From Bilabrum cf. latius (taxonomy: Eukaryota): a DNA stretch of 64,000 bases. Numbering within the stretch: the stretch's first letter is position 1; each line of letters starts with the position of its first letter. The notes beneath the pieces are model-generated. The model was not told where the DNA came from, made no database searches, and was given only the letters and a program-made list of their open reading frames with translations. Positions 2,699 through 57,413 of this stretch are shown piece after piece. The position numbers and the translations under genes were made by a program. The DNA lies in assembly GCA_965178125.1 (NCBI GenBank), contig OZ237768.1, positions 496,001-560,000 of the forward strand, read 5' to 3'.

Positions 2699-2927
2699 CT
2701 AGACTAGAGCGTACGATTCAAGAACTGTATGGTAAAAGCAGTCCCGGGGACGCAAAGTAGACCGAGCAAGTTGCGACCAACCCGGCGGCGGGCGGGCCCA
2801 GCGATTGTACAGGTTGCAACCGCGACCATAAACGGATCGATCTAGTGTTTACACCTTTGCGTGGAGTTCGAGACACCGGAATCAAAAGTTACCGGGCTTT
2901 TTATACCCAACACTACGTACATTCCGA

Positions 2928-26300: not shown

Positions 26301-29300
26301 TCAGCCGGACATACCGATGCCCCGTGAAGCTGAAGGGGTGGTAGTACTGGTGCTGCGCCACAGCTCGCAACACACGCTCCGTGGCCACACTCGCCGCCTG
26401 CCTGGGCATGATCTCTTCAAGGAGAGCATCCCTCGCCCTCTGCTGGGCAGCGGTGGGCTCCCCGTTGCTCTGCTGCTCTAGAGGCTGCAGGATCCCGAGG
26501 ACTTCACCGTATCGTTTGGGTGCCTTGTCTTCTACCTGGGTGGGGACGGGCAGCTGCGGCGTAGTGTCCACGCGGCCTGCAGCGCCCTGGATCCGATCAT
26601 AGCCGTTGGCAAACGTCTCATTCATCTGCTGCGTCACGCTGTCCTGCATGTGGTCCGCTCGGCCCGTGCTTGTGCCTTCGCCCGAATCCAGCTCCAGTCC
26701 CTATCCCACAGTCGAGCCGTGCGCGTCACCCATGGGCATCATGCTGCCCCGGCCCATCATGCTGGCAGATTCTCCTCCCGTCTGCTGCAGCGTCTCGTCC
26801 CAGGCCGACAGACTTGCGACTCCGGGCCCGATGTTATCACTCGTCACACCGTTCCAACGGCCTTGCGAACCCTTGACCATCCCAGGCATCTCACCAGAAA
26901 CATCTCTGTGGGTCACGGACTCCGGCCTTACACCCATGCTTGGAAACTCCCCGTTTCCACCCGCCGCAGCCGCAGCAGCCGCAGCAGCTCCAACCGCGGA
27001 GGCGCTTGCTCCAACCCGAGCACGCCGGCCCTGTATGGACTAAGACAGCCTGCCGGAGCTCCCAGGTCTAGCAGGCGCCCTGCCCTATCCACCCGGTGGG
27101 TTAGTGGACGTGCGGACAGTCATGCTCAAGAACTATTGCGGGCCCCGCGGCGGGCGCGAACTCGCCTGTACGGCGGTCATGTCGGTGGGAACCGTCTCGA
27201 AAGTTCCCTCGCGCAAGAGGGAAGAAACGCGGTATATTCCTGGCATCAGCGCGGGTGCTCGCAACAGAGCAGGGTAGAGAAGCCTTCGGTCGCGGCTCCT
27301 CGCTGCGAACCGAATGATCGACATCATCGTGTCCCAAGCAGACATGGCGGCACCTGCCTCCTCAGGCGGAATACCGAACTGGTGCGCAATGGTACTTGGA
27401 ACAGCGAGTTGGTTCAGACTACGCGTGTACTCTCGTTCTACCAGGGCCGATTCGCCCTCGGTATCGTTGCCATCGATGTACAATTTCGTTTGTTTCGAGG
27501 AGGTTGGCGCTGCTCCGAGCTTGCGGCTGCTACCTGCACCGGCATTACCACTGGCCACCTCGACCGTTTGCTGCTTCCCAATCTTGTGTATAGGCTCATT
27601 GGAAGACGATGTGCCCGCTTGCACGATGGGAAACGAACCGTATGGCCTCCGAACTACTAGCTTTGCCACATAGGCAGACTGCGCACCGGGCAGCCCGATG
27701 TGCATGGGCATGCACTTGGGGCCTCCGAGCGCCACCGAATTCTTGAGGCTGTTGGCTGGATGCAGTTCTCGATGCATGATCATCTCATCCGTGTCTTCTT
27801 CCGTGCTGTAAAAACCCTCAGTGTCGAAGAAAAGATCGATCATCTCCTTGCGGTGGTCCCGCTCCGGGCGGCGCAAGGACCGCCGGCGGGTGCCTGACGG
27901 GGTCGGGCTATTTCTTCTGGGTGGTGGAGGGAGTTCAGCCGCCTTTTTGCACTCCTGGATGACCCTCTTGAAAGTAGCGTGCTGTTTCCGGGTAATCTGG
28001 TGCAGGTTGAGTCCGGGGGCATCTGTCTGCACGTGCACCACCGAGAGGTCGGCAAGGTGCTGATTCGACAATGTGCTGTCCTTTGGCATCGTACGGAGGA
28101 CCTGCTTGACCTTGCTCTAAATTCGGACGGCGCGTGTCCTGTCACGAATGTAGGCCTGCAGTTTCAGAGCTCGTTCCACGTTTGCTTTGGCCTGCGCTAT
28201 GGCCTCCTGGCTGGTCTTGCGGTTGCTGGGTGGTGGGGCCATTCGGGAGCTGTACGGAGCTAGTGTCATGTCAGTGGGATGCACCTTGATGCGGACGCTC
28301 GGAGTCTGGTTTCGGACCCCCTCTGGCATATGCTGCTCAAATGACTCGCCCAGGTTGGAAATGTACCTGCGCCTGCCGACATCGTCCCCAGATGCAACCC
28401 TGGCAGAGTCCAGCGGAGGCGGTTGCCTGGCAGTTCCTGACGTCTCATTGGACTCCCCGAGAGTGCCTAGGCGGTTCTATCTCGGGGTGTTGACTGACTC
28501 GTAGGATTCTTTGCCGCGATGCAGCCTTACTCCAAGTTCTGTTGACACGCGCGAAGATCCAGCTTCCTTTGCAGCACCCGATGACCCGCTCCTGTCGCGA
28601 TTACCGGCTCCCGGGCTGGAGGATCCAGACTCGTGTTCGAGGTGGGGCGTGCGACGAACTAGATTCAAATCGATGGACGGGCCCTGCGGATGGCCGCGAG
28701 CGCTCCGTGGCGGCTTGCCTTGGTTGTCGGGAGACTTCAATAGGCTTCTGTTCGATGCACCTGGCTGGAGCATCACCCCGTCACTGGGATGGGCATCGAT
28801 TGAGATGTAGTGCTGAGGCCTTCTATTTCCATACCCTGCTGCACCACCTCTAGTTGACTCCAACTTGCTCCCATCGCTCGAATCTCTGCCATCGCGCGAC
28901 ACAGCTGGCTGTTGCAATCCATTGTGGACGGTGGGCTCACCTAGCACCATGGAGCCGAGCTCGACCGATTGCATGGCCAGCGATTTCATGGCGAGCTGAG
29001 CGGCGCTTTGGCCACCGCCCCTCTTTTTCCTGGCCCTAGTGGAGACATACCTGGGCACAGCGGGTAGCAGTGATATCTCCGCTCCCGGCCTCAGCCAAAA
29101 CACGTGGAAAAGCTTGTCACCCTTGCCCTTGAGCTTGACCGCTCCCCTGTACAGAGCTGTGAATGTCATGGGATGGTTAAGCGCAGTCATTTCCAGCGAT
29201 TGCCTCAGCTCCATGAGGCAATCCATGCTCATGAGGATTTGGCTGGTGGCGCTCTTGCCCGCATGCCGACTCGTCACGTTGACGGGGTCGCCAAAGAGCC

Positions 29301-32300
29301 TGCGGGTTGGTAGAGCGAGGGGGGGGGGGGGGGGGGCGAAGATGGCCAATGGGGTCGACAGGGTGCGCGCAGATCGAATAGTAAAGGCGCATAGAGCATA
29401 AAGTTTGTTTGTTGCGAGGCGCTAACGTTGCCTCACTTCCATGCCGGAGTCCTCGCCCCTACTGTTCCTGCTGTGATTGCGCCCGAGTGCAGACCGATCT
29501 TGATCTGGATGCTCTCCGGGTCGTCCATGTTGTCCGGATCCACACGGAATTCGCCAGCCTCTGTGAAGTCGTGGATCATCTTCTGCATCAGCACGGCCAT
29601 GTTACAGGCGCACTCGGCATGCATCGTCGTTGGCTCAAGAGCACCTGCGACGCCGAGCCACGTGGACTCGATCGTTTCCACTTTAGTCACATGGCAGGCG
29701 CTCGCGAGGCGGTCAAAGAGGCCGAATACCCTGTCCAAAGCGGCTACCACCTTGTGGTCGGGGTACTTCTTTACCAGCTTGGCGTAACCAACAGCGTACG
29801 CGAACAGCACCGTCGTACTCTTGTGCTTATCGGCGAGGTGCTCAAACCTCTCTTCTTTCGTGGCGTCAAGGGAATGAAGGTAGTCGACAAGTGCCAGCTC
29901 GGAAGCATTCAGCGCAGAGAGGTTCTTCTCTGCTCGCTTGAGGAGCTGGTCTTTGTGCTTGTGACCTTTCGCCACCCACTTTGCCTCGGCCTCCAGTGCC
30001 CTGTCCCGAGTGCTACGCGACGAAGATTCGGCGCCTTCACCAGCATGACTGCTTCCCGCTCCAGATGCAGCCCCAGAAGAACCTCCTGCCGGTGCCCTCG
30101 GCTTCTTCCTGGTGGGTCGTGAGGGTCTTTGCCTACCGTTGGCCGGAGATTGTTGGCTGCTCGTCCGACTGGGTTCTGCTGCTGCTTCCGCTGCTGCTGC
30201 TTCCGCTGCTGCTGCAGACGATGTAGGGTCTGGTGCCAGCGTCTTGTACTGATGCGAGAGCGGGGACTTTCGCGATGATCCGGTGGTGTGCTGCGCAGCA
30301 TTGTTAGGTTGGGATCTAGTGCGCGGAAAATCTGGATCATCACTGCTGCGGTCTGCTGCCTTCCCTTCGAAATCGAGGGGGGCGAGTCTGCCGGGTGGCT
30401 TGACTCCGATTGGCTGGGTTCCGACCGCTCCATATTCATCTGCCCGGGAACTGCCTGCATTCTGAGACTTGCTGGACTTGCCGCCTTCTGCTTTGCTGCC
30501 TTCGATCGCAGCACTAGGCTCCGAGGTAGATGAGGGCTCTCTTCGGCTGCCGTCGTCTTCTCCCTCCTCGCCTTGTCTGACGCTTGCTTTGCTAGCGATC
30601 GATCCAACTGAAGAAGCAAACGATGCACCAGCAATACCAGTTCCGTTGCCTTGAGTATGCTGGTGATCGGAACCGTGTGAAGTGCTGGAAATGGTCCCTA
30701 TCGCGACCATTTCAGCTGCCAGCTACTTCTTCGCTTTCATCAGCGCCAACCTGCGCTGCTCTGGCAGCTGCAGCATGTACCAAGCACGCACACGAAGCGC
30801 ATTCACGTGCGAATCGCAGGCGCGCCTAAATCCAGTGCTGAGTCTGGATAGCTCAGCGCCTCGCTCTGCGACCGCATCTGCCCTCTTCTTCAACCTGCCT
30901 TCATCTCCGAAGAAAACCATGCTGCCATTTCCAGGCCCGTCCGTGTCTGCGCCTGCCTCATCCACGTCCATATCTGCCTCGCCCTGTCGTAGAGCCTCTG
31001 ACGCTTCCTTCCCCTCCCCATTGTTTTCCATCTCCTTTGCTAGCTCTTTAGCCACTCGCACAGTGGCGCGCTGGTCGATAGTTGCCAGGTCTGCACGACG
31101 ACCACGCTTCTTGCGTTTCAGCTACGAGGGCAAAGTGGGTCCCAGGTCAAGGGTGCTCGACCCTAGCTCTACTCTGACTTGCTTGCGATACCTGCTGGTA
31201 AACTGAGCACTTCCCTCTATCCCAATGGAGCTATAGGACGGCATGTTGCCCGCACCTTTTGATGCGCTGCCGAAGCCAAGCTCTCCGAGGCTTGCACCGG
31301 AGGGCAATGCACCCCCAAGAGCACCAGACTCCTCGATGGACAGGCGATGGGCCCCTGCACCACCGCCGGGGTTCTTTGACGATCCCACACCGATCATCAT
31401 TGCAGGATCGAAGCTACCGATGCTGTCGGTGCCGTCCCCGTCTCCAGTGGCAAGAAACTTCTCGACTGATTCGGAGGCACCAGCGCCCGTGTAAATTCTC
31501 CTGTTACCGCTTGACGAAGTTGAGTTGCCCTGCTGTGTACTATGCTTTGTTCCAAGGGCTTTTTGGACATCATTGGCGGCCATCCGCGCTTCCGATAAGC
31601 GCCTTCGAGCACGCTTGATTGGCCCAGTAGTCACACCGGTCTCCTTCGCTTCTGTCGCATCTGCAACCTCGCCGCCAGACTCGCCGCCCCTTCGGTTGTC
31701 CAGCTCCATGATTCCGGATGAGTCTCCATCCGAGTCGTCGTACTTGCCAGTAGCCGCTTGATCGTCGTCATCGTAATCCACGATACCGAGAGCAGTGTCC
31801 AGATCACCAATGGGGCCAAACCCACCGCCTTCCGGCCTGTTTTCCTGCGCTTCTAGCATCTCCAGCTTGTCTCCCATTCTAGCGTGTTTGCGTCCAGCCG
31901 ATGCAGACATCCAGTTGGCCACGGTATCGCCCCCCATGGAAAACGACCTGCCTTTGCTTAGGGTCATTGCCTCGACGCTCTGATGGATCGCAGCGAGTGT
32001 CCTTGGATCAGCCGCGGCCTCCAACATGGAGAGCTGAAGACTGGCCCCCATCCCGTCAGCCAGCATCTTCAGGTGACTCCCTTCTCCGCCTTGCCGCCGC
32101 CTGTTCGTGGTCATGGCCTGCATGTCAACATCATCGCTTCCGGCCGACTACCTCTTTGAAGTCCCCCTGTGTCGACGCCCGCCGGCGGCTGAATGCTCCG
32201 CGGAAGCCCTCCGATTTCCAACCTCCTGCCCACCAACTACGATAGGCCCCCCAGAGGCAGCCGACATGGCGCTGGCATCCGAAGAGCGCTGCGTGCTCGC

Positions 32301-35300
32301 ACGGGTCGCAACGGGGGCATCTGTGCCGGCTAGTCCCGACCTGGCCGTGGTGTGCCCGCCGCCCGTTGCACCATCAGAAGCTGCCGATCCTCGTCCCGAC
32401 ATTCCTGACATGTCAAGGTTGTCTGATTGCTGCAGGTCAATCACTGCTTTGTGCTTGGCCTGTCCACCCTCAGTGCCGGCCCCAGCTCTGTGTCTCGTGC
32501 CTCGCTAATCGATCTGATGAAGCCCGGGCGCATTCGGGCCATAAGCGTTGGTGGCTCCGCCGTGCGAAGCTCTGCTGATCCACGAAGCCGTCTGCGTGAG
32601 CACTCGCTCCGTGGCATACTCGGGTCTCTCGTACTCGGACTCGCTGCCACCTCCCACAAGCTCGTCATCGTCGTGCTCAAGATCATCATCGTCATCCTCG
32701 TCGTCCTCGTCTTCGCGGACGACTGGCAGATCAGGTGGCTTGCTGATGGGCTGCGGTGCCGCGACCCGGCGCAAGGTTGCAGAAGGACCCTGGGGACCTG
32801 GCAGTGCTACTGCTGGATCCACTGGCTCATCACCTTCGCTAGACCGTGACGAATGACCTTCGGTTTCGCTTTTTTGGCTATGAACGGCCGTCCTGCCGTT
32901 CTTGGTTCGCTCCTCCCCGCTCGCGTTGGAGCTGTCCTGTCGCGAGCCAGACAGCTCGTTTGAGGATCCAGCCCCCTCGCGGCCCTCTGCGATACTGGGC
33001 AGCTCGGACAAGACCTTGTTTGCGCCCTGTCCGTGTCCGCCCAGACCAAGAGAACCGGGTGCAACCTCGCCGACCCTCGAGCCGCTTGCCAGCTACAAGC
33101 TCTCGCCCTCGACCCCCGGCACTATATCAGCGGATGGAAGGGGCCGGAGGGGTGCTTTCTTGGTCTCCATGTCACTTGTCACTTTCTTTACAACGTCGAG
33201 CGTGGTTGAAATCGTGCTACCGGACTATGTGCGGGTCCTGCCTGTCTTCTGCATGTGGGCCTAAACGAAGCTTGGTGCCCGTTCCAGCTCGCCTCCTCCA
33301 GTACCCACGTCTCCTAGCTTGACCGCTCTGTTCTCTGCCTGTAACTTGCTCATGTGGTTCTGGGGCAGCATGGTGAGGGCCAGAGACTTCTGCACCAGAC
33401 GGTCAACGGCTAGTTTCACCCGGCAGTTGAACTCGTCCAGGAGCCTCCAGGCGTTGCTGCGGCCTGACCTGTACATCATCCTCGACGCCCACATCGTGAT
33501 GATACCGCCCACGATGCGAAGCGATTGTACGGTTAAGTGCACTTCACCAACCGTGAATGGAGCCGCCGCTAGAATCTCGCCCCGTACCGCAAGTACCTGG
33601 GCGTCGTCTCCGACGGGACGCCGAAACAGGTCGCTTGACGAGCCCCATAGAGACAGGTGGGGGCACCCATCGTCAAGCTCCAGCTAGAAATCGAACCCTG
33701 GCAGGCTACACACCGCCACGGCGATGCCCTGAGCACCCTACCAGATCGACACGCCCACGCTGATGGCCTACAAGGCAAGCCCGACTATCGCGCTCGCCCA
33801 TGGCAGCTGGGACGGTGCAACGTGACACATGGCACCCACGAACACAAGCAGGTCGATGAAGTACTGCAGCACAGTGTACGATGCAGAGAGAGTGGAAGTC
33901 GGGTGGTCCAAGGGCACCAGGTGCTGGATCAGAAAGCTGTGCAGCAGGTCCAGCACAAACACGCCCGAGAAGGTGATGAGCAAAAGCGCGTTCATGTCGC
34001 CGATTATCTGAACCATCCTTCCCTGGGTAGGTCGCCTCGAGCTCGAGAGCCTGGTCTGCATCATTTTCTGGAACACCTTGTACCCGATCGGCTTGCTCTT
34101 GCTCTTGCCCTTGGATTTGCTCGAGCTGGCGGAGGCGGGCTTCCTAGCAGCCGCAGCTCCAGCAGCCCCGCCAGAGGATGGCCGCACGTTGCTGCTGCTG
34201 CTGCCCGTGTGCTTCCTCTTGCTATCTGAATCCAAGTACCTAGTACGGCTGGCCGATGGAAAGTGACCAGAGCTATCATCGGTATCTTCAAGCGGGTTCT
34301 AACCGTCAGCTGTGAACGCACGCGGGCTCGCCTTTGGGTCACGACCGCGATCGCTGGTCGGTAGCGACTGGCTTACGGCAAGCGACGCTACACTGTCACC
34401 GTCGGAGCATTGAGAGCAGCAGCAGCAGCAGACCCTGCGGCACAGGGCATACCTGCAGCACACCACAAAGCACAGCCTGCCAGCCAGCGACCCCCCCTGC
34501 TCCCGAGGCCTGGTGTCTTTTTTGTCTATGTGCATGTCTTCCAGCCGGGCTCGAGCCTGGGACACCTCCTCTAGTCGAGGCACGGGTTTAGCGTACATTT
34601 GCGTGCCTGCCTTGACGTCGTGCTCGATGGCACGCAAGGGGGCGCCCATCGCCGCCAAAACGGGCTCAAAGGGGACTCGAGTCGCCTCCTCGCTATGCTC
34701 GTCCCACCTGCCATCTGCACCGGGAGGTAGCAGCCCACTGGCCGCAAGTTCCCCCTCGGAGTTCCGAGCGAGCATGTCGTGGATCCCATTGCTGGGCGTG
34801 GGGGCAGCTTCCGTTGGTGGTGCTACACCACCGCCACTGCCTTCTGCAGGCCCCGGCCCTTTGTGTAGGCCACCGCCTTGTGATGAGGAGCCTTTGAGCG
34901 AGGACCGCTGCTCCACCTGCCTGACGATCTGCACGCCCGCCTCGTTTTCGTGGAGCGCCACCTGGTAGGCCGCGTGCAAGAACCTCGCTTGTTCCCTGGC
35001 ACGCTCCTCCTCCATCTGCTGGTCCAGCTCCTCCCGTGCCTGTCCCCTCGCCGCCTGCATCTCGAGCGACGACACCTAAGGGATGTTATACCCAGTCTGA
35101 TAGGGACCAAGCACTTCCCTGTGCCACGTCGACAAAGCCGCACACAGCCCCAGCACCAGAAGCACCCTCAGCACCTGCACGAGCACCAGCGACAGCTTAC
35201 CCCATCCCCCGAGCAACGCACCTTCCTGCCCTTCCTCATCATACTCTATCGAGGGAACAAACCCGCCAAGCACGTGTCCCCTCACGCTCAGATGAACGTG

Positions 35301-36884
35301 CACCGAGTGCAGCGCGGCAGAGACAATCACGTAGGCCAGGAAGAGGTAGCTCGCTGCAACGATCGTCTGCAGTCGGGACCGCTCGAAGCTATACAGGGCA
35401 TATGCCTGCTACCACAACGGGTCGACGTACGTTTGCCAACGGCTGTCTTTCGTCGCTGCCATGATACCCGCGGTATCATATTTGGCTCCGGATCCGCCCT
35501 CCCCCTCTTCCTCGCTGTCTGCGTCGCTGTCTTGGTCCCGGCCGGGGGACGGTGCCCCTGGGCCGCTTGCGTCCGGCGTGGTGCCACCGCCAACCGCAGG
35601 CGCTACTGCAGGCACGCTGCTTTGGTCAGCGGAAGGGAGAAACACGCTGCCACCCGTGCCCCCGCTCCGTCTGCTTGTCCCGAGCAGGACGCTGCCCGCC
35701 GTCTCCCTGCCTTTTCCGCTCTTGCTCAGCAATCCCTTCCCGGCGTGCAGCCCGTCCCGCATACTCATCGCTCGCTTGCGCTTCTCTCTAAATCCAACTT
35801 TATCAGATGGATCTTCCAACCTGGAGGCGAGCCTTAGCGGTGTTCGCATTCCGCGAGACTGGCCGTCCGGAGAGAGTGCGGCACCAAATGAAGTTTCTCG
35901 CTTCGGCGTGGCAGGGATCGGTGTCTGAGGCGGCGCATTGGAAGGAGTTTGCTAACCGCTTTTACTTTCGCTGGAGCTATGGGATTTCCATCCGCCGGAA
36001 CGTTTCGGCTGGTAGGACAGGTCGGTTACGGGGCCGTGCTCTTTGAATCGGTCTCCGATGGCCTCGTTGACAGGCCCAGGGAGCGACGCTCTCCTAGCCT
36101 TTCCGGATGCACTTGCATGACTACTTCCAGACCTAGCGCGGCCGTCTTGGGGTGATGCCTCCCGGTGACCGCCGGTGTCCGGCATTCCCAGCACACCATG
36201 GTCAACGCTTCCTCGCGTCCACGCCATCAGGGAGCTCTTGCGGTGGCGCTTCGGGGTTTTGGCAGCCATACCTGCTGGTGTACTAAAATTACGATGATGC
36301 GCAGGCGTGAAAGCGTCGTCGTCGTCGTTCAGAGACATTTCGGCGTTGCTAATTTCCAGGGCTGGCGGCCGTCTGCCTCTTTGCGACGTTCCAGTCTCGA
36401 CTGCGAGGCCTTCGAACTAATTTTGACTAGCTTCCGAACCCAAATCTGCTCCTTCATTGGGAAATTCGGATGCCTGGCCTGTGAACACGGAAGGTAGAGT
36501 GCAGTGACAGTTCCAACGAATACAACGCATAGTGCCGGCAGTGTTGGTGAGCCAGCCATATCGCGCCCCAATACCCACAATTATGGTACATTCGATAGAA
36601 TTGATTTGGATTTCGCTGCCAAACAAACCAAATACACCGTAAAAGAGCGGACACACTCCACTGACCGGGTCGTGTTTGATTCATCGCAGCAGCGGTTTCT
36701 TAGAACGATGCACACAGCATGACTAGGGTAATTGGATCAATAATGCATACTAGAACTTACCTAACGGGTCCGCCAAACGCTAGGTGGTGGTTCCATCCAC
36801 AAACTGTTGCAATGCTCGCTCCTCCCGTTGCAGCAGCTTGTCAACGTCAACCTTGGCGACAGTCATCCAGTGGTTTGAATTCAT
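20320..36884 (-). CDS. Giant membrane class III nucleotidyl cyclase (~5,381 aa) with TM blocks and two catalytic domains, probably a guanylyl cyclase; 29 in-frame TAG
   Basis: Model: exons 36884-36761, 36478-29437 and 29299-20320 (introns 36479-36760 GTAAGT..CAG and 29300-29436 GTGAGG..CAG). Splicing the second intron restores PAWKLFGDPVNVTSR. Domain 1: TVLFAYAVGY, KVETIEST, IKIGLHSG, VKLKGKG. Domain 2: VLYADIKGFT, VDTIGDC, LRIGIHTG, RPRYLLWG. All gaps between the listed ORFs were translated and contain only TAG. It ends at TGA 20320-20322. Confidence 0.85.
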
Positions 36885-37061
36885 GTCGGGATCCATACTG
36901 GTAGATTAATGCTGCGAGTGTCTTCCGATTTCCCCCTAAAAGGGTCCTCGCAAATGGTCGGATGGTCGCAGTGTTTCTGGACCTGCTGCCGGGAGCCGGT
37001 CGCAACCTATTTCGCAGAATCCGTGTCAATTGCGGAGGAAAACTGGTACATCAGCAACCAC

Positions 37062-38110
37062 ATGATCATTTATGCAGCAGTAGCGAATGAACAAACAATA
37101 TTAGTCGAACACGCGTCCCACGCAGGGTAGTTCCTTGCCGTCGCACACAAGTTGCTGAGCTCTGAGAATCTTCCAAACTACGATACGAGAATATCGTACA
37201 GTGCAGACAAGTAAGGTCACTGAACACGCGTGCTATGATTGGAAGGTGTGCATCACACATTCAATACGCCTTGCTGGATGCTGGTGACCGCAGGCACAAG
37301 TTTCACCTTATCGTGGACTAGGGCATGCGTTTCGTATGTCTCGCGGAAGCATAGTTGGGCCATAGGATACCATTCCTGCTCCTACAAGATATCAGATCAA
37401 AGTTTATTGCATCGGTAAGAGCTTAATCCTGCCAACTAACCATCAAGTGCCGAACTAACGCACCCTGCCACTGCTCTTTCGCGTTGCGGGCTGTAGCGCA
37501 GTTTCCTGGAGACGAGGCTCTACGGGCCACTGAGCCGGACAGTTACGTTCGTGCATTTAGTTCTCAGCTAAAGCTCCTTGTTGTAAGGTCCAGCTCGATT
37601 TGGCTTCCTTTTGCAAAGCACCTTTAGGGACTCACCGGTTCACCCGTTCCTTCCTTGATTCTGCGCAGGAAAAATATGCCGACCCAGCACAATCGAAAGT
37701 GTAGGCAATTAAAAATGAGCTAGACCAGGTCAGATCCGTGGCTATGGAGGGAATCGGTGAGACGACGCCCCGGCTGCGTTCAATCCGCACTTGCTCGCTT
37801 CACGTCTGTCGCTGCGCTGCTCCTCATGTTTTATTGAGACCATCAAAGCTGCGCGCGACAACGTGTATGTTATACTGCAGATCTTGTTTTGGACCGCGGT
37901 GAGGGCGTTGATGAGATGGCAGAACGGACGACTTTGCTCGCCGAGTCCTCGAGGCAATTCGCCACTGCGGGCAGGCGCTTGAAATCGACCATGTGGTGGA
38001 GGAACGCAAGGATGCAGTGCCTCGTGGTAGTGGCCGTGCTAGTATTGTTGTTGATTGTGCTGGGAGTGGGCTGCGGACCCTCCTTCTGCCTCTCAGGGCG
38101 GGGGACATAA
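37062..38110 (+). CDS. VAMP7: VAMP7-type longin R-SNARE (222 aa); 4 in-frame TAG, ends at TAA
   Basis: Exons 37062-37210, 37294-37414, 37502-37582, 37669-37756 and 37881-38110, all with GT..CAG introns in matching phase. Longin N-terminus MIIYAAVANEQTILVEH..G*FL..FHLIVD*GMRFVCLAEA*LGHRIPF. SNARE coil with zero-layer Arg (VLDRGE), then MWWRN and a C-terminal TM segment. TAGs at 37128, 37319, 37352 and 37702. Confidence 0.92.
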
Positions 38111-38228
38111 TGCATACCTAGTAGGCCGAGCACGCTTGCCTTTCCTGTCACGGCATGTAAGCACCCGTACTACAAATCGAATGGAAATTGTACCCCACAA
38201 TGTCAGCAACCGCCCCACTCCCATTCCG

Positions 38229-40216
38229 TCACTTTGTCGGCACGAATGCCAGCCCCTCAAACTTGAAGGGCCCAAGGTCGGCAAACCCCTCCCGAAGCCC
38301 CACCCCCTCCACCACGGCCGCCACCCCCGAAACCGGAACACCGTGCAGCAGCGGCCCCCTCCCGTCCGTGAAGAGCACGCCCCTCTCATTCTCCAGAGCC
38401 TCTGCCCTGTGGCAGGCCGCCGGCCACGGCACCTCGGCGAACCTTGGCGAACGTTCCTTGCCGACCGGCGCATCCGCAACGGAAGCGGAAGCACTCGCGT
38501 CAGCGGGAACACTAGTGGCGTTGCGGGAGCCCACTCGATGCTCCCCTCTCCCCTCCCCACCACCACCCTACGCCGCCCCCTTGCCCGCCTAGCTAGTCCC
38601 TCTATCCCTATCCCCATCACCACCTGATTCGCGCCTGCTTGCTTCATTCCCATCGGAGGAGGAGGAGGAGGAGGCAGCACCACCCGCGAACCTGAGTGCC
38701 GCTAGGCAGAATGCCTCCGTGGAATCGATGGCCCCTTGCCCCAGCCACGCCTCCACAGCCTCGAGCACCTTGCGCCTGCGCTGGTTCGCGAACGTTCGCA
38801 GAGGAAGCAGCTCGGCCACCGTGGGGACCGACCGGCCACCGGTTGCAACCTCAATCCCACCGCCGGTTGCAACCACCTCGGGCATCCTCTCGTCCAGCAG
38901 CACCTCCCCTTCCGCGCTGAGCACGGTGATCTTGCTGTGCACCTGATCCTCCACCTCCTTGGACTTGAGGGCGAGGTACACACCGTGAGATCCGGGCACC
39001 GCCCGGATGGCCGTGAAGCCGAACGTGTCCTCCCGCGGCCCCGCTGTCACCGTGTGCACGTGCGCGAAATCGTCAGAGGCTCGCAGCAGGAGGTTCGCGC
39101 CCCTGTACTAGTCCTGCTTGGGCGTGTACGGCGTGGATGGACTCCTCTTCCTGGGTGCGAAGATCCACTCCCTGCTGCTGCCCACGTATGCCACGGCCTC
39201 GTGCCAGAGGTACCCGGGTTCGGTCACGTTCGCCGCGGTTCGCAGCGCCGCGTATATGCTGGACCATCGGTAGTTCTGCACCCTGCCTGTACCCAGGTCG
39301 ATGGTCTTGGTCCATTCCGAGTCCCTGTGCACCGTCCGGCCCTGAGCGTCCTGGAAGGCCCTCCCCATGGATCCCACCCAAATCATCCCGTCTCGTGTCG
39401 TGCTCCATTCGGACTTGAAGGGCCGTGGCTGGTCCCCGTCCCCGTCCGCGAGAGCCCACCGCTGGAAGAGAGCGCCGTCCTCGGGCCGGATTTTCCAGAC
39501 GAGCCCTGTGACGTCACAGAAACCGAATAGCTTGTCGTGGTGGAAGAGCAGCTCGCTCAGCTCCATGGAGCGGCCCCCTCGGTTCATGCGAGCACGAAGC
39601 ACCTGCTCGCCCAGCCACTCGATTCGGTACCTGGGCTTGTCGGTCTCCGGCTCACCGGGCAGTCCATCCACCCGTTTGAGCACACCTTTGCGCAACACAG
39701 ACCCCCAGTAGCTTTTCTCCATCTTACGCTCTCCCCGAGGCTCCACAAACCCCTTCGGGTCCTCGCTCCCGTCCGTTGGCAGCCCAGAGCCGGAGAAACG
39801 GATTCGGTCCTCCAGCCCTCTGGAAGCATGATCCATATCCGTGACGATATAAAACTCATGATCCTGCGATGTGACAGGTATCTCCCGAAACGCATCTGCA
39901 GGCTTTGCTTCAACATGCAAACCTTGGTGAACCACGCAGAATATGTTCGTGCTAGCGGCCAACTCACCCTGGTGTCGTACTTTAATCGATCAAAATCAGC
40001 GGCAGATATACCTCCGCTATGATCAAGAGAAGCGGCAGCCCTTGGGGCAGCTGGAGACGGGGCTTCCGTCGGAGGCACCGCTTCAAGATTCGATGCCGAC
40101 CCTCGCGCACCTGCAGCGTGTTCGTGGATGCTCCGCGCCACATCCAGCGTTGGATTACTCTTAAGCAGTAATATCACAACAGCAACGATGAGTGCTACAT
40201 TGATGTATCCTTGCAT
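38229..40216 (-). CDS. Ca2+-activated nucleotidase/apyrase (CANT1/Cimex family), ~627 aa, with signal anchor and a large C-terminal insertion; 3 in-frame TAG
   Basis: Exons 40216-39968 and 39863-38229 (intron 39864-39967). Motifs IVTDMD, RSMELSEL, LADGDG...FKSEW, VGSMG, PGYLWHEA, APRK, RGANLLL, FGFTA, ALKSKEV and terminal KFEGLAFV followed by TGA. Confidence 0.9.
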
Positions 40217-40472: not shown

Positions 40473-40812
40473 TCACGTATCCACTTGCACCCTTGCTCGC
40501 CGCCCGGAGTGCCCACTGGCCTGCGAGGACGCGGCAATGCCCCCGAGAGACCCCGGCTCGACCTTCGCGCCCCGCTTCCGCCGGCCGCTCGCACTCGTCA
40601 CACCGTCCCCCGCACCTGCCCCGAGAGACCCGGGCTCGAGCTTGGCCCCACGCGACCTCCTGCTGGACCTACCACCGGACGATGCCGAGGAGGAGGAGGA
40701 GGAGGAGGAGGAGGCAGCCGAAGAGGAGCCAATCGACCCCGGCTCGAGCTTCGCCAGGCCCCTCCCTCCCCTGCTGCCCCTGCCCCTCCTCCTACCCCCG
40801 CGCCCCATCTCT

Positions 40813-40851
<39 letters not shown>

Positions 40852-42465
40852 CCATCCTCGTCGTCCTCGTCATCAGCACCCCCTGTGGCCGCCTCACCCT
40901 CGCCCCCCTCAGCGGCTGCCGCTGCCCCCTTCAGCTATGCCCTGCCCTCCTTGGTGCAGTGCAGGTGCTTGGTGCCTGATGCGTCGCGGGACTGCGGATT
41001 CATACAAATGCAAGGGTACATGTGATTCAACGCTTGCGCCATAACGGGGTGAACGGCTGAATGCATGAAAAGCATAGCTCGCAATGATGCGCAAATGAAG
41101 CAAGGGGACGACGATTCTCACGAAAACCACGGGCCGCTTGCAGACCGGGCATCGCTACGCGTGAGTCGCAAGCGACGGCATGAACTCCGCGTAAGCCCTA
41201 TCTGAGAGACAGAACTCTTTGCTGACGGCGCACTTGCCTCTGGCTGCGAGGTCACTGGCGACCTCGGCGGACTTACCCGGCTGCGGCCTACCTGATGTGC
41301 TCAGGGGGATGAGCCAGCCCTCGGTGAGCAAATCGGCGGTGACTCTGCGAGGGGAGGGGGTAGAGGGGAAATATGGAGTGAGAAAGTCAGTGGAATGGAT
41401 CGAGACGGGTGGCAAGCGGGGGAGGGGTGGCAGTACCCTAAGCTACGGAAGCGAGTGGTTTAGGTGGCACCACACGTCCGAGCCATGGCACGCTGTGGCA
41501 CTGAACGGCACACTTGGTCCCATAGGCACACTGAATACTGTAGGAGAAGGGCAAATGCTCACCTGTGGGGTCTGTGCAGCTTGCTCTGGCGAAGGTTCGA
41601 CACGCTTCGATCCATGCCTGTGGGCGCGGGGGCCCCGTCCCGCTGCTGGGCAGTTGCCTTGATGTTGCCGACCAGCTCCTTGATGGACCCGTAGTCTAGT
41701 TTGCCTTCCCTGCGAGCGAGTTGATCATGGAGAGAGAGATTATATCGCGGGAGGGATGTTGATGGAGAGAGCGTACCACGAGGGGATGCAAGCGTTCTGT
41801 CAAGCTTGCGATGCTAGCCTGGTAGTGCTGACGCATCGCACAATGCCTCGTAGTAATGGCATTCACAGGTAAAAGCCAAAAATACAAGCCCGGCGACGAC
41901 GTCCCCTCACCCATCCGTGGCTACGTACTGGACGATCATGTCCAGAACGAGCACCTGCCAGTCGTCCAGGCCGGCACCCTTCCTCGTAATGTCATCTGGG
42001 TTCTGCGGGACGTGGCATTCATAGTTGAGAATGACATAAGTTGGCCGTTGTGGCTCGCCTCATTCCAAGCTGCATGGATACCACTGGATTTGCAATGTAC
42101 TCACCCTGTCCACTAGCGCTAGCATCTTCTTCCCATTAAGCTCGCTCGCGAACGCCTAAAAGTACATCCCAAACTTTTCAATTGATGAGTTGACTTGCTT
42201 TAGGCAACTTTGAAACGTTTTGGGATCTCTAGAGGCTGCGTCTTCTCCTACGGGAGATTTGAACTCCTCAAGTGCGAACTCAAAATGGTCCTCAGCTTCC
42301 CCTACAGTACAACAGCGCTGTGCCTGCGCAACTTTGATAAGGCGAAGAATGGTTATTTCTTGTTCTACACCCAATCACTCCAAGCACGTGAACAAATAGG
42401 GCCTACCTTACGGCAAGCAGCTGAAAAAATGCTCGGTGGACATCCGTCAACTTTGCAAATTCCAT
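40473..42465 (-). CDS. NSE1: SMC5/6 complex subunit NSE1 (~417 aa) with a reduced RING and an acidic/RG-rich tail; 3 in-frame TAG
   Basis: Six exons: 42465-42412, 42323-42105, 42002-41911, 41709-41563, 41344-41122 and 40991-40473, with GT..CAG introns in phase. N-terminus LTDVHRAFFQLL resembles NSMCE1 MTDVHRRFLQLL. Also LALVDR, LLTEGWL, LSDRAYAEF.P.L and CPVC...HLHC. It ends at TGA. Confidence 0.8.
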
Positions 42466-42560
42466 GACAAGTGGATGAGTCTCAAGCTCTACCATTTTAA
42501 TACTACAGAGATCGATATTCGGGGGTAAAGTATCAAGGTGTGGCTCTGTGGCAAGCAATC

Positions 42561-45552: not shown

Positions 45553-45733
45553 GAGGCAGAGCGGGGCAAGCCTTTCGAGAGCGTGTAAGAAAGGCACGTC
45601 AGGCGAGATGTGCCGCTGCTGCGTGGAGAAGGTGTTGCTGGCGGTGCTGCGGCGGCGATGGGGCTTGACTGCCTCGCTCTGGTGGAAGCATCGTCTTCTC
45701 AGCTGCACACTGACCATCCGCCGAGTTTGTCAG

Positions 45734-48700
45734 TCCTAGCGATCCTGGTCAGGTCAGGTTTTCGTCACCACGAGATTCCCGTTACCAACTAGGCCTACTA
45801 GGTAATACTAGTCGCCCACTTGTGACGGAGCTATTCCCACCAGCGCAAGTTCGCCATCTTCTACGGCAAGGAAATGGGCGAGGGTGGGCTCCAAACACGG
45901 AGGATCCCAATCCGGGAATCGGGGTCCCCGATTCGGGGACAGGGATTGGACAGGGATCGAGCGTTATGATAGCGAACTTTCCATCTTTCTGCTGGGTCAA
46001 TGGCCAGCACCTCGTGGCCAAGGCGCCCGTGGGCATCGGCACGTGCCCCGTGGTCGTCGCCACCGTTATGGGCACTAGGAGTGACGACTACGACGAGCCG
46101 CTTACCTTCGACTACGCAGCCCCATTGCTCACGAACGTGAGTAAGGCCGGCAAACCAGACTAGTGGTACAGGCACGGGGAATCCGTCCAGCCGGATGACT
46201 GGGCCAACGCGCTAGTGGTGTGTGCAGAAAATCTCCCCCTCATGGGGATGGGCGGCAGCCTGGCCATCGAGGTGTCCAGCGAGCCATGTTTGAGAGTGAG
46301 GCAGCGAAACGACATGTGCCTTGAGTGCACAGGCGTGTCCGGGAGCAGCATGCGAGAGCAGCTGGCGATGGTAAAGGTGACTGTAGAGGGACAGTCCGGT
46401 TCCCTGCGCCAGTTCCTGCCCTTGCTACAGCGGCCGCAGGTGCGTATAGAGGCGGTAACTAGGGAGGGCAGTGCCCAATTGGTGCTAGAGACGGCCATTG
46501 CATAGGCGGGGTCCGATGGGACCGTGGGACTGTACGGCCGACTGACACGAGGAGCCTCTGCATCAGCAATTGGCAGCTCCGAGCGCAGGTCGCTGCAGAG
46601 GGATGACCCAGCTGCACTGGAGTAGCAGCTGGCCTCTCCCTAGACCAGAATACCGCTGTGCAACGTGTCCGCAGCAGCGGCCTAGGACGGGCAGACAGTC
46701 GTATGCGATGTGCCCGCCAACACATCCCGTCGGATCCTGGCCGTGGTGGATGCTGACCCGGCGGCCGGGTGGCAGCTTCAGGTCATGGCATGCACGGAGT
46801 TCGAGTGCTCCGACTTCGTGGGGAGGGAGGTGCAGGCGCTTGGGGGCCGCAGCATTCCCCCTCTTGGTGTGCGTGCCTTCCGGCTGCGGTCCGAGGGGTC
46901 TCTGCTGCTGGTGACGTGGCTGGCGCTAGAGCGGGACGGTGAGGCCGAGGCACTGAGCCAGGCTACGGAGATGCGTGAGGTGTCTGTGTTCCACGTGGGC
47001 CTGGGGACTGCGGGCGGAGACTTGCAGACATCGACCACTGTGGGCGCCGCGATCGAGCGGCGGGAAGAAGGATGGACATCGGTGGTGATAGGGGAAGACC
47101 TGGTGCAAACCGTGAGAAGGTGGGGAACTGCAGCCCCCCTGCTGCGTCCCTCCAACTCCAGCACGGCTGCGGACGCCAGCGATGCATCCGATGCGATGCA
47201 GCTGCCCAACAACGATACGGATGAGGCGCAGCTGCAGCAGGCCATCCAGTCGCTACGCAGTCTCCGTGGTACTTTCCGAATCGCAATATTCCAGGCAGAG
47301 GTGCAGCTGCCACGGCAGGACTGGGCGGAGGGTCCTGTATCTGTTGCCGTTGCTGGAGTGCCCGAGGGCGGTGACTACGAGCAAGCACTGTGGACGGGCA
47401 CTTCGGCCGCTATCCGGGACTCGTGCCAAGCCAGCGAGTACCTGGACCAGCAAGGGGGGCTGGAGCAGCAGCAGTGCCGGCCGTGTCCCGCCGCAGGCGG
47501 GCTGGGTGTCGCATCGGGTAATGGGACGGGGCAGGTCGCACAGTGCGGTGGCTAGCCCCTCCAAGAGGTACCTGCGTGCGATGGGTTCTGGCGCGTGCCC
47601 TGGGGCCTGAACAACGTGAGCGGGGACCCGCTGCCCTTCGCGCCTTGTCCAGACCCTCTGCAATGTGGGGGTTTCGCTTGCGGGCAGAGGCAGGACGTGT
47701 CTGTCTATGAGCTGCGGTGTGACCAGATCCTGGCTGTGGACGAGCAGCTGGGCCGCAACGAGCTGCAGAGGGCCATGGAGGACGTGGATGACGGGCTACA
47801 AAGCAGATGGATCGAGCTTACGCTGCCCGAGTGCGGGCCCGAAGACGGGCTGCTGACGGTGGACGTGCAGCAGGTAGAGGGTTGCAGGGACAATCACGCC
47901 GGGGTGCTTTGCGCTCAATGTGCGGTTGGATACAGTCTGAGCGTGGATGGAAGCTGTACGGTGTGCCGGCCTGGGCTGTCGGCGCTTCAGGTGATGGGCG
48001 GGGGACTTCTGATCGTCCTTGGGATCGGGGCGCTGTTGCTGCTGGCCCATCGTGAGGCCATGGCAAGAAGTACTGGGTCGAGCGGGGAACATGCTGGCGG
48101 TACAAAGGGGGTTGAAGACAGCGAGGACAAGTAGAAGGGATCCCCCCTGGGCATCGTGAGGGTCGTTCTAGGCCACGTGCAGGTTGTCTCCATCTCGAGC
48201 GCCGTGGTGGCCGACTGGCCCAAGGGATTTCTTGACCTGTTTGCAGTGTCGGATGCTGGTACATCTGCGGGCGTTGACCTGGCCTCCCCGGACTGCATCG
48301 CGTTCTCTGGGGTGGATCGAGGGCTAAATCCGGTGCATGGAATCAGGCTGGGCCAATCTCCGGTTCTACTGCGAGTGATCATGGCATTCATCCTGCCGGT
48401 GCTGTTGGTGGGCTTCGCGGCTCTTGCGTGCTGGGGGTTGCCCGAGTGGGTTCTCAGGGTGGTGGCGGGGCAGGAGGTGGAAGAAGAGGAGGGGGGGGAG
48501 ATCGCCAAGGTCGTTTCAGGATTGCTTGGAGTAGGTGGAAAGGGCAAGGACAAAGAGGGCATCAGCAGAGATGGGGATGGCAAGGCTCTAGCCGCCTCCA
48601 CGGGGCCGGCCATGGCAGCGAGTCCAATATCAGGTACAACGCCACGCAACCTCCTCGCCAGCCCTATAGGTGCATCAAGAGGAATTAACCCGCGCGGTGC

Positions 48701-50039
48701 CGCCCCTACTGGCACAGCGCCTGGATTCATGGCCTCTAATCCGGCGGCTTCACAGGGAGCTGCTGGCGCGTGGCGTGGCAGCAGGAGATCCAGCATGCCA
48801 GCGGTAGGCACATGGAGCGGCATCGGACGTGGAAATGGCTTGCGCAGTGACAGCAGCAGGGGGCATTTAGCAATTGCGGCCACTAGTTTGCCCGACCTAG
48901 AAGGTTCCAAGCTGTTCGGTCGAGGGACCATCCCACCGAGTCCCCCAAGCCCTCCGTCTGGATATTGGCCGAGTCTCAAGGACCGGGTGATCCTGTCATC
49001 CACGGCGATCATGGCTCTGCTCCACGCCTTTGTGACCACGCAGGCCATGCAGCTGCTCGTGTGCCAGCCAGTGGGGCCAGGGACAAGCCCCACGGACGCG
49101 ACGGAGGGGGGGTGGACGGGGCGAGCATTCCAGTCGCGGCTGGCGGCGGATCTTGACGTGCGGTGCGACTCGACTGCGAGTGCAAGGGCGGGCGTGGGAT
49201 TGATGATCCTCGTGCTGTTCTCTCTCGGGGTACCCCTTGGACTGGCCGTGGCAGTGTGCATGAGGCGGCTCAAGTCCCCCCGCAGCAAGTACCAGATGAG
49301 CTACATGGTGTCCAGCTATGCCCCACATGCGCCGTTCTGGGAGAGCGTTGCGATGCTGCGGAAGGGTCTGCTGGCAGTGCTGGTGGCAGGGCTCAGGCCG
49401 GTGGGTGCCTCCATGCAAACAGCCGTTGCTGTAATGATCATCGTGGGCAACCTATGGGCCATCACGCAGTATCGGCCCCTGAAGACAGGGCTGGAGAATT
49501 GGCTGGAGCAAGTGTCGGCCGTGGTGCTGCTCATCACGCTCATGCCTGTTCTGATGCTGCCTTCGTCATTCGAATCGGTGCTGGCGGAGCAGCAGGCGGC
49601 ATTCGATGACCTGGGGGGTCAGGAGCGTCTTCGAGAGTCTCTGGGCGCGTTCGTGTTCTGGGCCAACGTTCTGTTCTTTATCCTTGTGGGGATGTGCCTG
49701 GTGATTGAAGTCGTCCCCCGGGCGATGTTGGTTTGGATGCACGGATGGATGGTTTGGGGGTTGCACACGGTTCAAGATGGATTGTCGGCCTGTGGGGTAG
49801 ATTGCGGGTGCTTGGCACAGAGTGGCGAAAGAAAGGGTAGGATCATGAAAGCTGCTCAGGATGAATCGACAGGTGTGAAGGAGAGCAAGGGCGGGAGTGC
49901 TGCTCGTGCAGACTCGGGGAATGGCGAGCCTAAGGATGGCATACAGGACTAGGCGGGTGAGGTGCAGACGCGGAGCCCGCTGGCGCTACTGCAAGGGTTG
50001 CAGGATTTGCAAGCTGGGACTAGTGCCCAGGAAGCCTAA
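45734..50039 (+). CDS. Large multi-pass membrane protein with an Ig/IPT-like and Cys-rich ectodomain; 5 in-frame TAG, ends at TAA; 5' end unresolved
   Basis: ORFs 45822, 46215, 46710, 47595 and 48156 share a frame, joined by TAG (46161, 46503, 47553, 48132, 49950), ending at TAA 50037-50039. Contains TFDYAAPLLTNVS, GFWRVPW, CRDNHAGVLCAQCAVGY..SCTVC, several hydrophobic helices and a Y....PFWESVAMLRK motif common in protist multi-TM proteins. Confidence 0.75.
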
Positions 50040-53400: not shown

Positions 53401-54730
53401 GTGCCATCAGCGCGGCGTCCACTGATCGATAGCACGCAATGTAAACGGCAGAGATGGAGCCCTCGCTAACGTGACCCGCTTGCCTGACCTGCAGGGCCCG
53501 CTAGACTAGGAGCCTTCGGTCGCTGGGGGAGAGGGACTCTATGGCCTAGTTCATCTCGTACAACGATACTGACTCCAAGCTACCAATCGACTCGAATTGA
53601 CGTGCCAGCTCTATCATGGTTCCTGTTGATGCCAACAGAACGGCTGGTAACCCATCTGCTCTGAAGCCAGTACTGCGTACCTATGAGCGTTTGGTGATTT
53701 CCCTTACGATGGAGGCGTCACAATTCATTACCCAGAGTGTCAGCTCCCGCAGTGCCCCCTTGGTCTTCAGGGCCTCCCCGAGCCAGCGAGCACCATCATC
53801 ACCCACCTTGGTGTTCCTGAGATCCAGCTACTGCAGGGCCCCGTTGGTCTTCAGGGCCTCCCCGAGCCAGCGAGCTCCATCATCACCCACCTTGGTGCCA
53901 CTGAGATCCAGCTACCGCTGGGCCACGTTGGTCTTCAGGGCCTCCCCGAGCCAGCGAGCCCCATAATCACCCACCTTGGTGCTCCTGAGATCCAGCTACC
54001 GCAGGGCCCCGTTGGTCTTCAGGGCCTCCCCGAGCCAGCGAGCACCATCATCACCCACCTTGGTGTAATTGAGACCCAGCTACTGCAGGGCCCCGTTGGT
54101 CTTCAGGGCGTCCCCAAGCCAGCGAGCCCCATCATCACCCACCTTGGTGCCACTGAGATCCAGCTACCGCAGGGTCCCGTTGGTCTTCAGGGCCTCCCCG
54201 AGCCAGCGAGCACCATCATCACCCACCTTGGTGTAATTGAGACCCAGCTACCGCAGGGTCCCGTTGGTCTTCAGGGCCTCCCCGAGCCAGCGAGCACCAT
54301 CATCACCCACCTTGGTGTAATTGAGACCCAGCTACAGCAGGGTCCCGTTGGTCTTCAGGGCCTCCCCGAGCCAGCGAGCACCATCATCACCCACCTTGGT
54401 GCCACTGAGATCCAGCTACCGCAGGGTCCCGTTGGTCTTCAGGGCCTCCCCGAGCCAGCGAGCACCATCATCACCCATATTGGTGCCGCCTAGATCTAGC
54501 TTCTGCAGCGTCAATATATGTTTAAGCAGACTTCCAAGGGCCCATATAGCCTGTTCAGGCATCTGGATGCCAATCATATCGAGAATTCGGGGATCTTGGC
54601 TTCGGTTCATTGCCATCAGGCATCCGATCCGCTCTTGCATCCACTTACGCATAGGCAACAAACGGGATCGGACTACACCATATAGATCCGGAGTGATTTC
54701 ATCGCTTGACGCTTCTCGGTGCGAACCCAT
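50444..54730 (-). CDS. LRR (ribonuclease-inhibitor type) + helical region + PINK1-like protein kinase (~1,430 aa); ~17 in-frame TAG
   Basis: ORFs 54416, 52298, 51086 and 50444 share one frame, with only TAG between them. Kinase motifs GDGVNGFVF, LAVKG, CPHIVPVLHSF, VMPRYPTSL, VHRDIKADN, DFG, RAPE, ADAWA. It ends at TGA. The start at ATG 54730 is tentative. Confidence 0.8.
53740..54510 (-). repeat. 84-bp tandem array encoding 28-aa LRR units (LR*LDLSGTKVGDDGARWLGEALKTNGT), about 9 near-identical copies
   Basis: Exact 84-nt periodicity. TAG sits in the same column at 53828, 53912, 53996, 54080, 54164, 54248, 54332 and 54416. Confidence 0.95.
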
Positions 54731-57063: not shown

Positions 57064-57413
57064 ATTGTAGTAAATCAACCACTGTTCCAGTGAAGCAGAG
57101 CTTGAAAAAGATCGTGCGTCGACCGTCGACGTTTGCCATGTTAGCGAACGTTCTTCGATGTCAAAACCTTCGGCAAAGGCGAACACAATTCAAAACTCCG
57201 TACTTCGCTCTCGACAAACAGTCATTCACAATTCCACTCCTCCTTGACAATCACCCCGAAGGCCCCCTTCACCTCCAGAAGTGCTGTTAACAAGTGCACG
57301 GCCCTCCATACCATGGGATAGACCTATGAGCGATTAGCAGAATATCTCCTTACTGAGGACAGGCGTACCTCAGGAATGTCAGGGTGGGACATGGGAGTGC
57401 CCCTAGAAATTCC

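Follow-up and report, generated by a model that had tools for sequence, protein, structure and literature searches.

In nuclear genetic codes, UAG and UAA almost always change meaning together, and the published sections cited here name few exceptions, namely Iotanema, Rhizaria sp. exLh, Scotinosphaera, Protocruzia, some phyllopharyngeans and one ciliate that uses two amino acids (PMC5304391, PMC8271138, PMC11687900). In the fornicate Iotanema spirale, UAG is read as Gln while UAA remains a stop, and eRF1 is reported to carry a change, T32G, in its GTS motif (PMC5304391, PMC9161772). A change of UAG alone, to Gln or to Leu, is described for Protocruzia tuzeti and phyllopharyngean metagenome-assembled genomes, and in one ciliate UAA stands for Lys and UAG for Glu (PMC11687900). 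Rhizaria sp. exLh reads UAG as Leu (PMC5304391) and Scotinosphaera reads it as Ser, with TAA and TGA as stops (PMC8271138); 'genetic code 15' is named in PMC9523058. The code in which both codons stand for Gln (UAR = Gln, NCBI table 6) is reported from many ciliates, from Dasycladales and other ulvophytes, from hexamitin diplomonads and from Amoeboaphelidium protococcarum (PMC5304391, PMC6299283, PMC8271138). Here we describe a 64-kb stretch of contig OZ237768.1 (called the window throughout, at its full length of 64,000 nucleotides), in which a gene for a VAMP7-like longin R-SNARE contains four in-frame TAG codons and ends at TAA. Probably, UAG is a sense codon genome-wide, most likely for Gln, and UAA and UGA are the sole terminators, as in NCBI table 15. 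The basis for a code of this type is fivefold: TAG codons present in spliced transcripts, a frame and a protein conserved across these TAGs, gene ends at TAA and TGA that are defined by orthologues in two related organisms, the absence of TAA from ~17,000 in-frame codons, and Gln as the residue most often opposite TAG in the relative. Chance does not account for these observations, as homology, splicing and the orthologue from a second organism agree.

Uncoupling of UAG from UAA is a known kind of code and not a new one. The window is like Iotanema in that UAG probably stands for Gln and UAA and UGA for stops, in its probable origin from a non-ciliate eukaryote and in the tRNA-Gln(CUA) and altered eRF1 that would be predicted for it; unlike Iotanema, it is GC-rich (~0.6) and has many short GT-AG introns and giant low-complexity genes, and no link to fornicates was found. 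Ciliates with a UAG-only change share the same table when UAG is Gln, with TAG as sense and TAA and TGA as stops. Ciliate genomes are typically AT-rich with tiny introns, and the window is not of that type. With exLh and Scotinosphaera the window shares a difference in meaning between UAG and UAA and the retention of UAA as a terminator, but their amino acids (Leu and Ser, respectively) are both disfavoured in the window. The UAR = Gln codes share the change of UAG from stop to Gln, but there TAA is also Gln and TGA the only stop, whereas in the window TAA terminates at least three genes.

The VAMP7-like gene and its convergent apyrase neighbour

The VAMP7-like gene lies on the + strand of the window (G+C ~60%) at 37062-38110 and has five exons, which when spliced give 669 nucleotides (nt), or 222 codons and a stop. 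Four in-frame TAGs occur at 37128-37130, 37319-37321, 37352-37354 and 37702-37704 (codons 23, 59, 70 and 129), and the frame is free of TAA and TGA upstream of its terminal TAA. All four introns are of the GT..AG type (Table 1). The longin domain (Pfam Longin, PF13774) is recognised in exon 2 alone (E 2.1e-9, score 37.6 against a cut-off of 26.2), and Synaptobrevin (PF00957) in exon 5 (E 5.4e-16). Exon 5 could be aligned by phmmer to chains of VAMP2 and VAMP4, with vLDRge opposite VLERdq of VAMP2, Arg to Arg; this central Arg we take to be the zero layer of the SNARE motif in the customary numbering. A single hydrophobic 19-mer, at residues 193-211 of 222, is followed by the tail GCGPSFCLSGRGT. 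The conserved SNARE motif and the membrane anchor are encoded downstream of the four TAGs, so translation has to continue through all of these, as the original prediction had claimed, and the exon model, the Pfam matches and the splicing all agree with a longin R-SNARE of ~222 residues once this is done.

A HMMER scan with exon 5 matched 1,065 library proteins at E<=0.001. Among the matches listed, 31 were 195-260 residues long, and the 22 that aligned over more than 180 residues were kept (9 dropped), giving a full-length alignment of the window protein with 22 longin SNAREs. A word-index search with exon 5 (lengths 'longer') returned no homologue. The WW motif, the anchor and a CG..F..C tail are common to the window protein and the homologues, and the distance from WW to the end is 38 residues in the window protein and 34-66 in the 22 homologues (median ~42). 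The Synaptobrevin profile reaches its end (89/89) at residue 65 of the 75 of exon 5, 10 residues upstream of the TAA, and the public proteins P0046 (95% identical) and P0047 (60% identical), like the orthologue described below, end at the same place or a few residues away. An alignment of the spliced protein with VAMP7-type homologues had been proposed as a check, and by this alignment and the profile end the TAA does fall where such proteins usually stop, just after the anchor and a short tail. When ten of the exon 5 matches were looked up, eight had a source name and five of these read 'vesicle-associated membrane protein 7', a naming by match; the best of the named VAMP7 matches are spread over scattered eukaryotes. 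The anchor and the WW motif fit, and orthology to VAMP7, and not to Sec22 or Ykt6, is put forward tentatively. The protein is thus like VAMP7 and other longin R-SNAREs in its longin domain, R-SNARE motif, single C-terminal anchor, short Cys-containing luminal tail and length of ~222 residues, and unlike them in the four UAGs of its gene and in an identity of at most ~40% to any named homologue over the exon of the SNARE motif and anchor.

Each of the four introns appears as a joint in one contig each of the sequencing runs X6, X7 and X8, which come from two studies. These spliced contigs begin at 37052, 37061 or 37123 and join 37210 to 37294. Their pieces over exons 1 and 2 contain no other letters than the window, so that the spliced contigs show three of the four TAGs (37128, 37319 and 37352) just as they are in the genomic sequence; throughout the stretch, no differing letters are listed.

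A related organism is represented by a metagenome contig. The first metagenome scan, with the window apyrase as a single protein, gave no match; when the query was the window apyrase aligned with the public protein P0006, its nearest relative, the scan yielded a single contig of 4,002 nt (L001, G+C 0.54) that carries the same convergent pair of VAMP7 and apyrase genes. Its VAMP7 gene has 226 codons, the same four intron positions and phases, and 165 of 222 aligned residues identical (74%). It contains nine in-frame TAGs, three of them at window positions and one only 35 codons upstream of the stop, ahead of the membrane anchor, and it ends at TAA, four codons later than the window gene. When the window and L001 are compared as DNA, the identity is 0.64 over the last VAMP7 exon and drops to 0.47 past the TAA, where shuffled spacers give 0.48, so that constraint ends at the TAA. 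In the L001 apyrase gene, TAG occurs twice in frame and the terminator is a TGA behind the C-terminal motif that is found also in the window; over the last 120 nt of the apyrase, the nucleotide identity is 0.60.

In the window, the apyrase gene runs towards the VAMP7-like gene on the opposite strand. Its best homologues are ~46% identical, the best named ones being from choanoflagellates, and its intron at 39863-39966 is a joint in three runs. The ORF (open reading frame) ends ..FKFEGLAFVPTK and then TGA 38229-31. The conserved motif FKFEGLAFV lies after TAGs 38589 and 38568 and aligns with the KYEGLEFI-type C-termini of homologues and with P0006. Contigs that begin at 38576-38612 had made either of these TAGs a candidate terminator, which is ruled out by the conserved C-terminal motif downstream; translation therefore passes both TAGs and ends at the TGA. 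The original prediction also held that reading through the VAMP7 TAA would run into the apyrase gene, and this is borne out: the next in-frame stop is TGA 38264-66, which lies past the apyrase stop on the other strand, so the extension would overlap apyrase coding sequence.

The apyrase also contains an insert of ~190 residues before the last conserved strand (window 38300-38880, - strand; L001 1600-2050). It is common to the L001 relative, where it is strongly diverged, and occurs in no other homologue among 40.

Table 1 Coordinates, in window positions, of the VAMP7-like gene, the spacer behind it and the facing end of the apyrase gene
Feature	Position	Strand	Basis
Exon 1, start ATG 37062, longin N-terminal part, TAG codon 23	37062..37210	+	Gene model, spliced contigs, homologue alignment of N-terminus MIIYAAVAN
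Intron 1, 83 nt, GTAAGG..CCGCAG	37211..37293	+	Joint in one contig each of X6, X7, X8
Exon 2, longin core, TAG codons 59 and 70	37294..37414	+	Pfam Longin PF13774; contig pieces 37294-37413, no other letters, three runs
Intron 2, 87 nt, GTAAGA..GCGCAG	37415..37501	+	Gene model, spliced contigs
Exon 3, longin C-terminal part / linker	37502..37582	+	Gene model, spliced contigs, homologue alignment
Intron 3, 86 nt, GTAAGG..GCGCAG	37583..37668	+	Gene model, spliced contigs
Exon 4, N-terminal half of SNARE motif, TAG codon 129 (kept in L001 orthologue)	37669..37756	+	Gene model, spliced contigs, alignment
Intron 4, 124 nt, GTGAGA..CTGCAG	37757..37880	+	Gene model, spliced contigs
Exon 5, coding part: SNARE motif with central Arg (LDRGE), WW juxtamembrane motif, membrane anchor, tail GCGPSFCLSGRGT	37881..38107	+	Pfam, VAMP2/VAMP4 alignment, hydrophobicity, tail alignment
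TAA terminator of VAMP7-like gene	38108..38110	+	C-termini of 22 homologues and of P0046, P0047 and L001; loss of similarity to L001
Spacer of 118 nt between convergent stop codons, which must contain both 3' untranslated regions; TGTAA at 38156	38111..38228		Position, L001 comparison
Last apyrase exon, TGA 38229-38231, in-frame TAG 39108-10, 38589-91 and 38568-70	38229..39862	-	Pfam Apyrase PF06079 (E 3.1e-70); alignment of 40 homologues and P0006

Stop triplets and gene ends across the window

With only TAA and TGA taken as stops, nine long ORFs amount to 16,824 codons in total, among which are 90 TAG, no TAA and no TGA. A use of TAA on a par with TAG would lead one to expect ~26 TAA there (CAA:CAG = 138:478), and off-frame reading of the same DNA gives 99 TAA in 33,630 triplets. 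If it stands for Gln, UAG accounts for ~13% of the Gln codons of the long ORFs and for 4 of the 11 in the VAMP7-like gene. Under the standard code, the five longest ORFs of the window have 1546, 1243, 1103, 719 and 673 codons; with TAG as sense they have 5443, 3093, 2415, 1453 and 1441. With TAA as sense, the standard lengths are unchanged, and when TAA is added to TAG, gains are of 0-43 codons only, at the ends. A codon-usage log-odds scan at every stop triplet discriminated weakly, and most of the TAA and TGA triplets that it placed between stretches of apparent coding sequence were antisense to long genes.

Among the ten gene ends seen in the window, none is at TAG. Seven gene models end at TGA (19973, 20320, 38229, 40475, 50444, 55593, and 57414 or more likely 57222) and three at TAA (38108, 45550 and 50037). 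One of the latter is the multi-pass membrane gene that had been predicted to end at TAA, and does so: its ORF spans 45714-50039, with ~8-9 hydrophobic segments and TAA at 50037-39. Elsewhere, TAA 3072-74 (+ strand), which by the original prediction would lie within an intron, separates two ORFs of the same frame, 2832-3074 and 3075-3614. Gene ends at TAG defined by orthologues were looked for, and in this small sample none was found, the ends so defined being the VAMP7 TAA and the apyrase TGA in both the window and L001. The claim that TAG as sense is uncoupled from TAA as terminator is supported in the VAMP7-like gene, across the window and in the L001 relative.

Several points weigh against a code with UAG as Gln and UAA and UGA as the sole terminators. 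Since TAA and TGA served to delimit the long ORFs, the lack of both inside them is in part a matter of construction, and hence the lengths were compared; the ORF-length test and the orthologue-defined ends are free of this circularity. The sample consists of the 64-kb window and one 4-kb contig. Gene ends fixed by homology number two (VAMP7 and apyrase) and TAA-ending window genes three, and 64 kb leaves room for a low level of UAA readthrough or for UAG termination in other genes. Runs X6-X8 are taken as RNA by guess only, not being on record as RNA, and X6 is flagged 'probably DNA'; moreover, the spliced VAMP7 contigs end before the TAA (X7 at 38099, X8 at 38078 and X6, by arithmetic, at ~37986). 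A tRNA gene scan of the window and L001 found none, and eRF1 is not in the window; Rfam gave no match at the gathering threshold. As to the amino acid, the Gln call depends on five of ten sites of one pairwise comparison, and alignment columns of distant homologues slightly favour Glu over Gln.

The amino acid read at UAG and other accounts of the code

Ten well-aligned sites have TAG in either the window or L001 but not in both, and the codon opposite is CAG at four of them, CAA at one, and GAG, GAC, AGC, ATT or CTT at the remainder; two further TAG sites lie in the unalignable apyrase insert. With a Gln codon opposite TAG at five of the ten, UAG most likely stands for Gln, which is the best reading. 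The same uncoupled code with UAG as Glu (or another polar residue) is an unlikely alternative that draws on the more distant homologues. Column log-odds over the 12 TAG sites with enough homologues rank Glu first (E +2.6, Q -0.4, D -3.0, S -7.6, L -19.4), 29 of 41 homologues have Glu at apyrase TAG 39108, one L001 TAG is opposite GAG in the window, and UAG as Glu is known in a ciliate (PMC11687900). The close relatives speak for Gln instead: at their unshared TAG sites a Gln codon occurs at five of ten and a Glu codon at one of ten, and at 39108 the apyrase most closely related to that of the window carries Gln. Homologues also have Gln more often than any other residue (6 of 22) at the position ..SSR[Q]F.. 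of the SNARE motif.

UAG as Leu, as in exLh, or as Ser, as in Scotinosphaera, was also considered. The evidence is against both, with one Leu and one Ser codon as against five Gln codons among the ten sites, and with low log-odds. At the window's four VAMP7 TAG sites Leu occurs in none of 22 homologues; it is common at two of the L001 TAG sites. The site of one cyclase TAG is opposite Arg or Lys in solved structures, which is not informative, and two paralogous kinase genes, when aligned, proved too diverged to bear on the amino acid.

A further group of TAGs lies in the 50444-54805 gene, in which ten tandem 28-residue leucine-rich repeats (LRRs) of the RNI type (Pfam LRR_6) occupy 53700-54550 (- strand). 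In eight of the ten repeats TAG takes the same exposed position (..L[RQL]xL[DG]L..), the other two having Lys and Glu; as the position is the same, TAG was copied along with the repeat.

It is quite unlikely that the code is ambiguous, with UAG mostly sense but a context-dependent terminator of some genes, as in karyorelict ciliates and Condylostoma. Such a code might be read from the RNA-like apyrase contigs, which begin at 38576-38612, adjoining TAGs 38568 and 38589, and only about ten gene ends were inspected. Against it, the apyrase C-terminal motif that is common to L001 lies downstream of both these TAGs, no gene model of the window ends at TAG, and even the L001 TAG that comes 35 codons before the VAMP7 stop is upstream of the anchor.

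A reassignment of both codons, with UAR as Gln and with UAA rare in a GC-rich genome and serving as a stop by context, is very unlikely. It is the commonest variant nuclear code (PMC5304391), and TAA is indeed the rarest stop triplet over both strands of the window (416, against 889 TAG and 1,603 TGA). That rarity is set against the absence of TAA beside 90 TAG in the long ORFs, where ~26 were expected, and against the ORF-length test, in which none of the five longest ORFs was lengthened by TAA as sense. No TAA with clear coding potential on both sides was found on the sense strand of recognised genes, and both VAMP7 orthologues end at TAA, with similarity lost beyond.

An artefact or a non-cellular source (TAGs removed by unseen introns or by RNA editing, a pseudogene, or a giant virus with TAG as Gln) is scarcely credible even if run X6 may be DNA, given that the TAGs are kept with no other letters in spliced contigs of three runs, that L001 retains 74% of residues, every intron position and TAG at three of the four sites, that the window holds low-complexity ORFs of 2,400 to 5,400 codons next to multi-intron housekeeping genes, and that no viral hallmark family is among its Pfam matches.

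On the reading preferred here, with UAG as Gln and UAA and UGA as the only stops, the window would be part of the nuclear genome of a eukaryote in which a variant code applies throughout, and the VAMP7-like gene would be a normal, expressed and spliced gene. Ribosomes would decode its four UAGs to reach the SNARE motif and the anchor, and would stop at the UAA that lies 10 residues beyond the end of the Synaptobrevin profile. By analogy with the described cases, UAG may be read by a tRNA-Gln with the anticodon CUA, which is to be expected since this anticodon alone reads UAG while ignoring UAA, being unable to pair with it (PMC5304391, PMC9161772). Likewise, eRF1 would have lost or weakened its recognition of the G in UAG and kept that of UAA and UGA (PMC5304391, PMC9161772).

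Other genes of the window and the possible lineage

The largest genes of the window are of unusual length. Two ORFs of 2,415 and 3,093 codons at 20320-36680 (- strand) have 29 TAGs together, and each holds a partial adenylate/guanylate cyclase domain. At 29433-29601 the two ORFs overlap, each in its own frame, and by eye the first domain stops at ..TVGARTPAWK and resumes at ..RLFGDPVNVTSR..; from this break and resumption, they would seem to form a single gene, over 5,400 codons long, with a putative intron at the overlap. At 3644-19975 (+ strand), an ORF of 5,443 codons with nine TAGs has no Pfam match; by eye, it is of low complexity and shows a recurring motif of the G..CPV..W type. A likely upstream exon, in the same frame, lies at 3075-3614, after TAA 3072-74.

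A six-exon gene of 448 codons at 40475-42558 (- strand) has all five introns in spliced contigs, three in-frame TAGs and a TGA at 40475. Its product has a Cys-rich motif (CPVC) in the C-terminal part and, beyond this, a tail rich in Ser and acidic residues, and no confident family was found for the gene. In its 3' exon, a short acidic/GA-rich coding repeat (40800-40860) attracts hundreds of foreign contigs from all four runs, visible as a depth spike with many loose ends, so that depth there is meaningless. On the - strand at 57150-57500, TGA 57414-16, which closes a PQQ/kinase ORF of 1,239 codons, is probably intronic. About 60 codons past it, in the same frame, ..LLEVKGAFGV.. matches the C-terminus of a paralogous LRR-kinase (..LLEVKGAFGVQGVEREDGN), and TGA 57222-24 follows; the putative intron would run from a GTGATG donor, 6 nt upstream of TGA 57414-16, to an AACAG acceptor ahead of LLEVKGAFGV.

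The pentamer TGTAA is the polyadenylation signal of chlorophyte algae. It occurs within 600 nt downstream of five of the ten stops (VAMP7 +46, 45552 +32, 50039 +316, 50444 +92 and 55593 +455), where its density (33 copies on both strands) would lead one to expect ~1.5 of ten, and two copies closely follow the VAMP7 stop of L001. At most, this hints weakly at green algae, to which the VAMP7 homologues do not point.

In the literature consulted, no GC-rich non-ciliate lineage with a change of UAG alone to Gln was found besides Iotanema, and supplementary tables may list further taxa. No protein with an NCBI name is near-identical to those of the window, which is therefore not from an annotated NCBI genome such as that of Amoeboaphelidium protococcarum; the homologues show no clear affinity, and a further window gene (gene J) had four matches, all without a name. 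We tentatively suggest, with rather less confidence than we have in the code itself, that the window and L001 may represent an undescribed GC-rich, intron-bearing, non-ciliate lineage of at least two well-diverged members, with UAG as a frequent Gln codon and UAA and UGA as stops.

For practical purposes, gene models of this genome that are built with the standard code or with table 6 will be in error, and in public protein collections standard-code callers already fragment such genes (P0006, P0042, P0046 and P0047). A further GC-rich non-ciliate case, with a diverged relative, would provide an independent data point on how eRF1 and a CUA-tRNA separate UAG from UAA. If the suggested lineage is real, it would be a further independent origin of the uncoupling of UAG from UAA, and its internal diversity would allow the changes in tRNA(CUA) and eRF1 to be traced.

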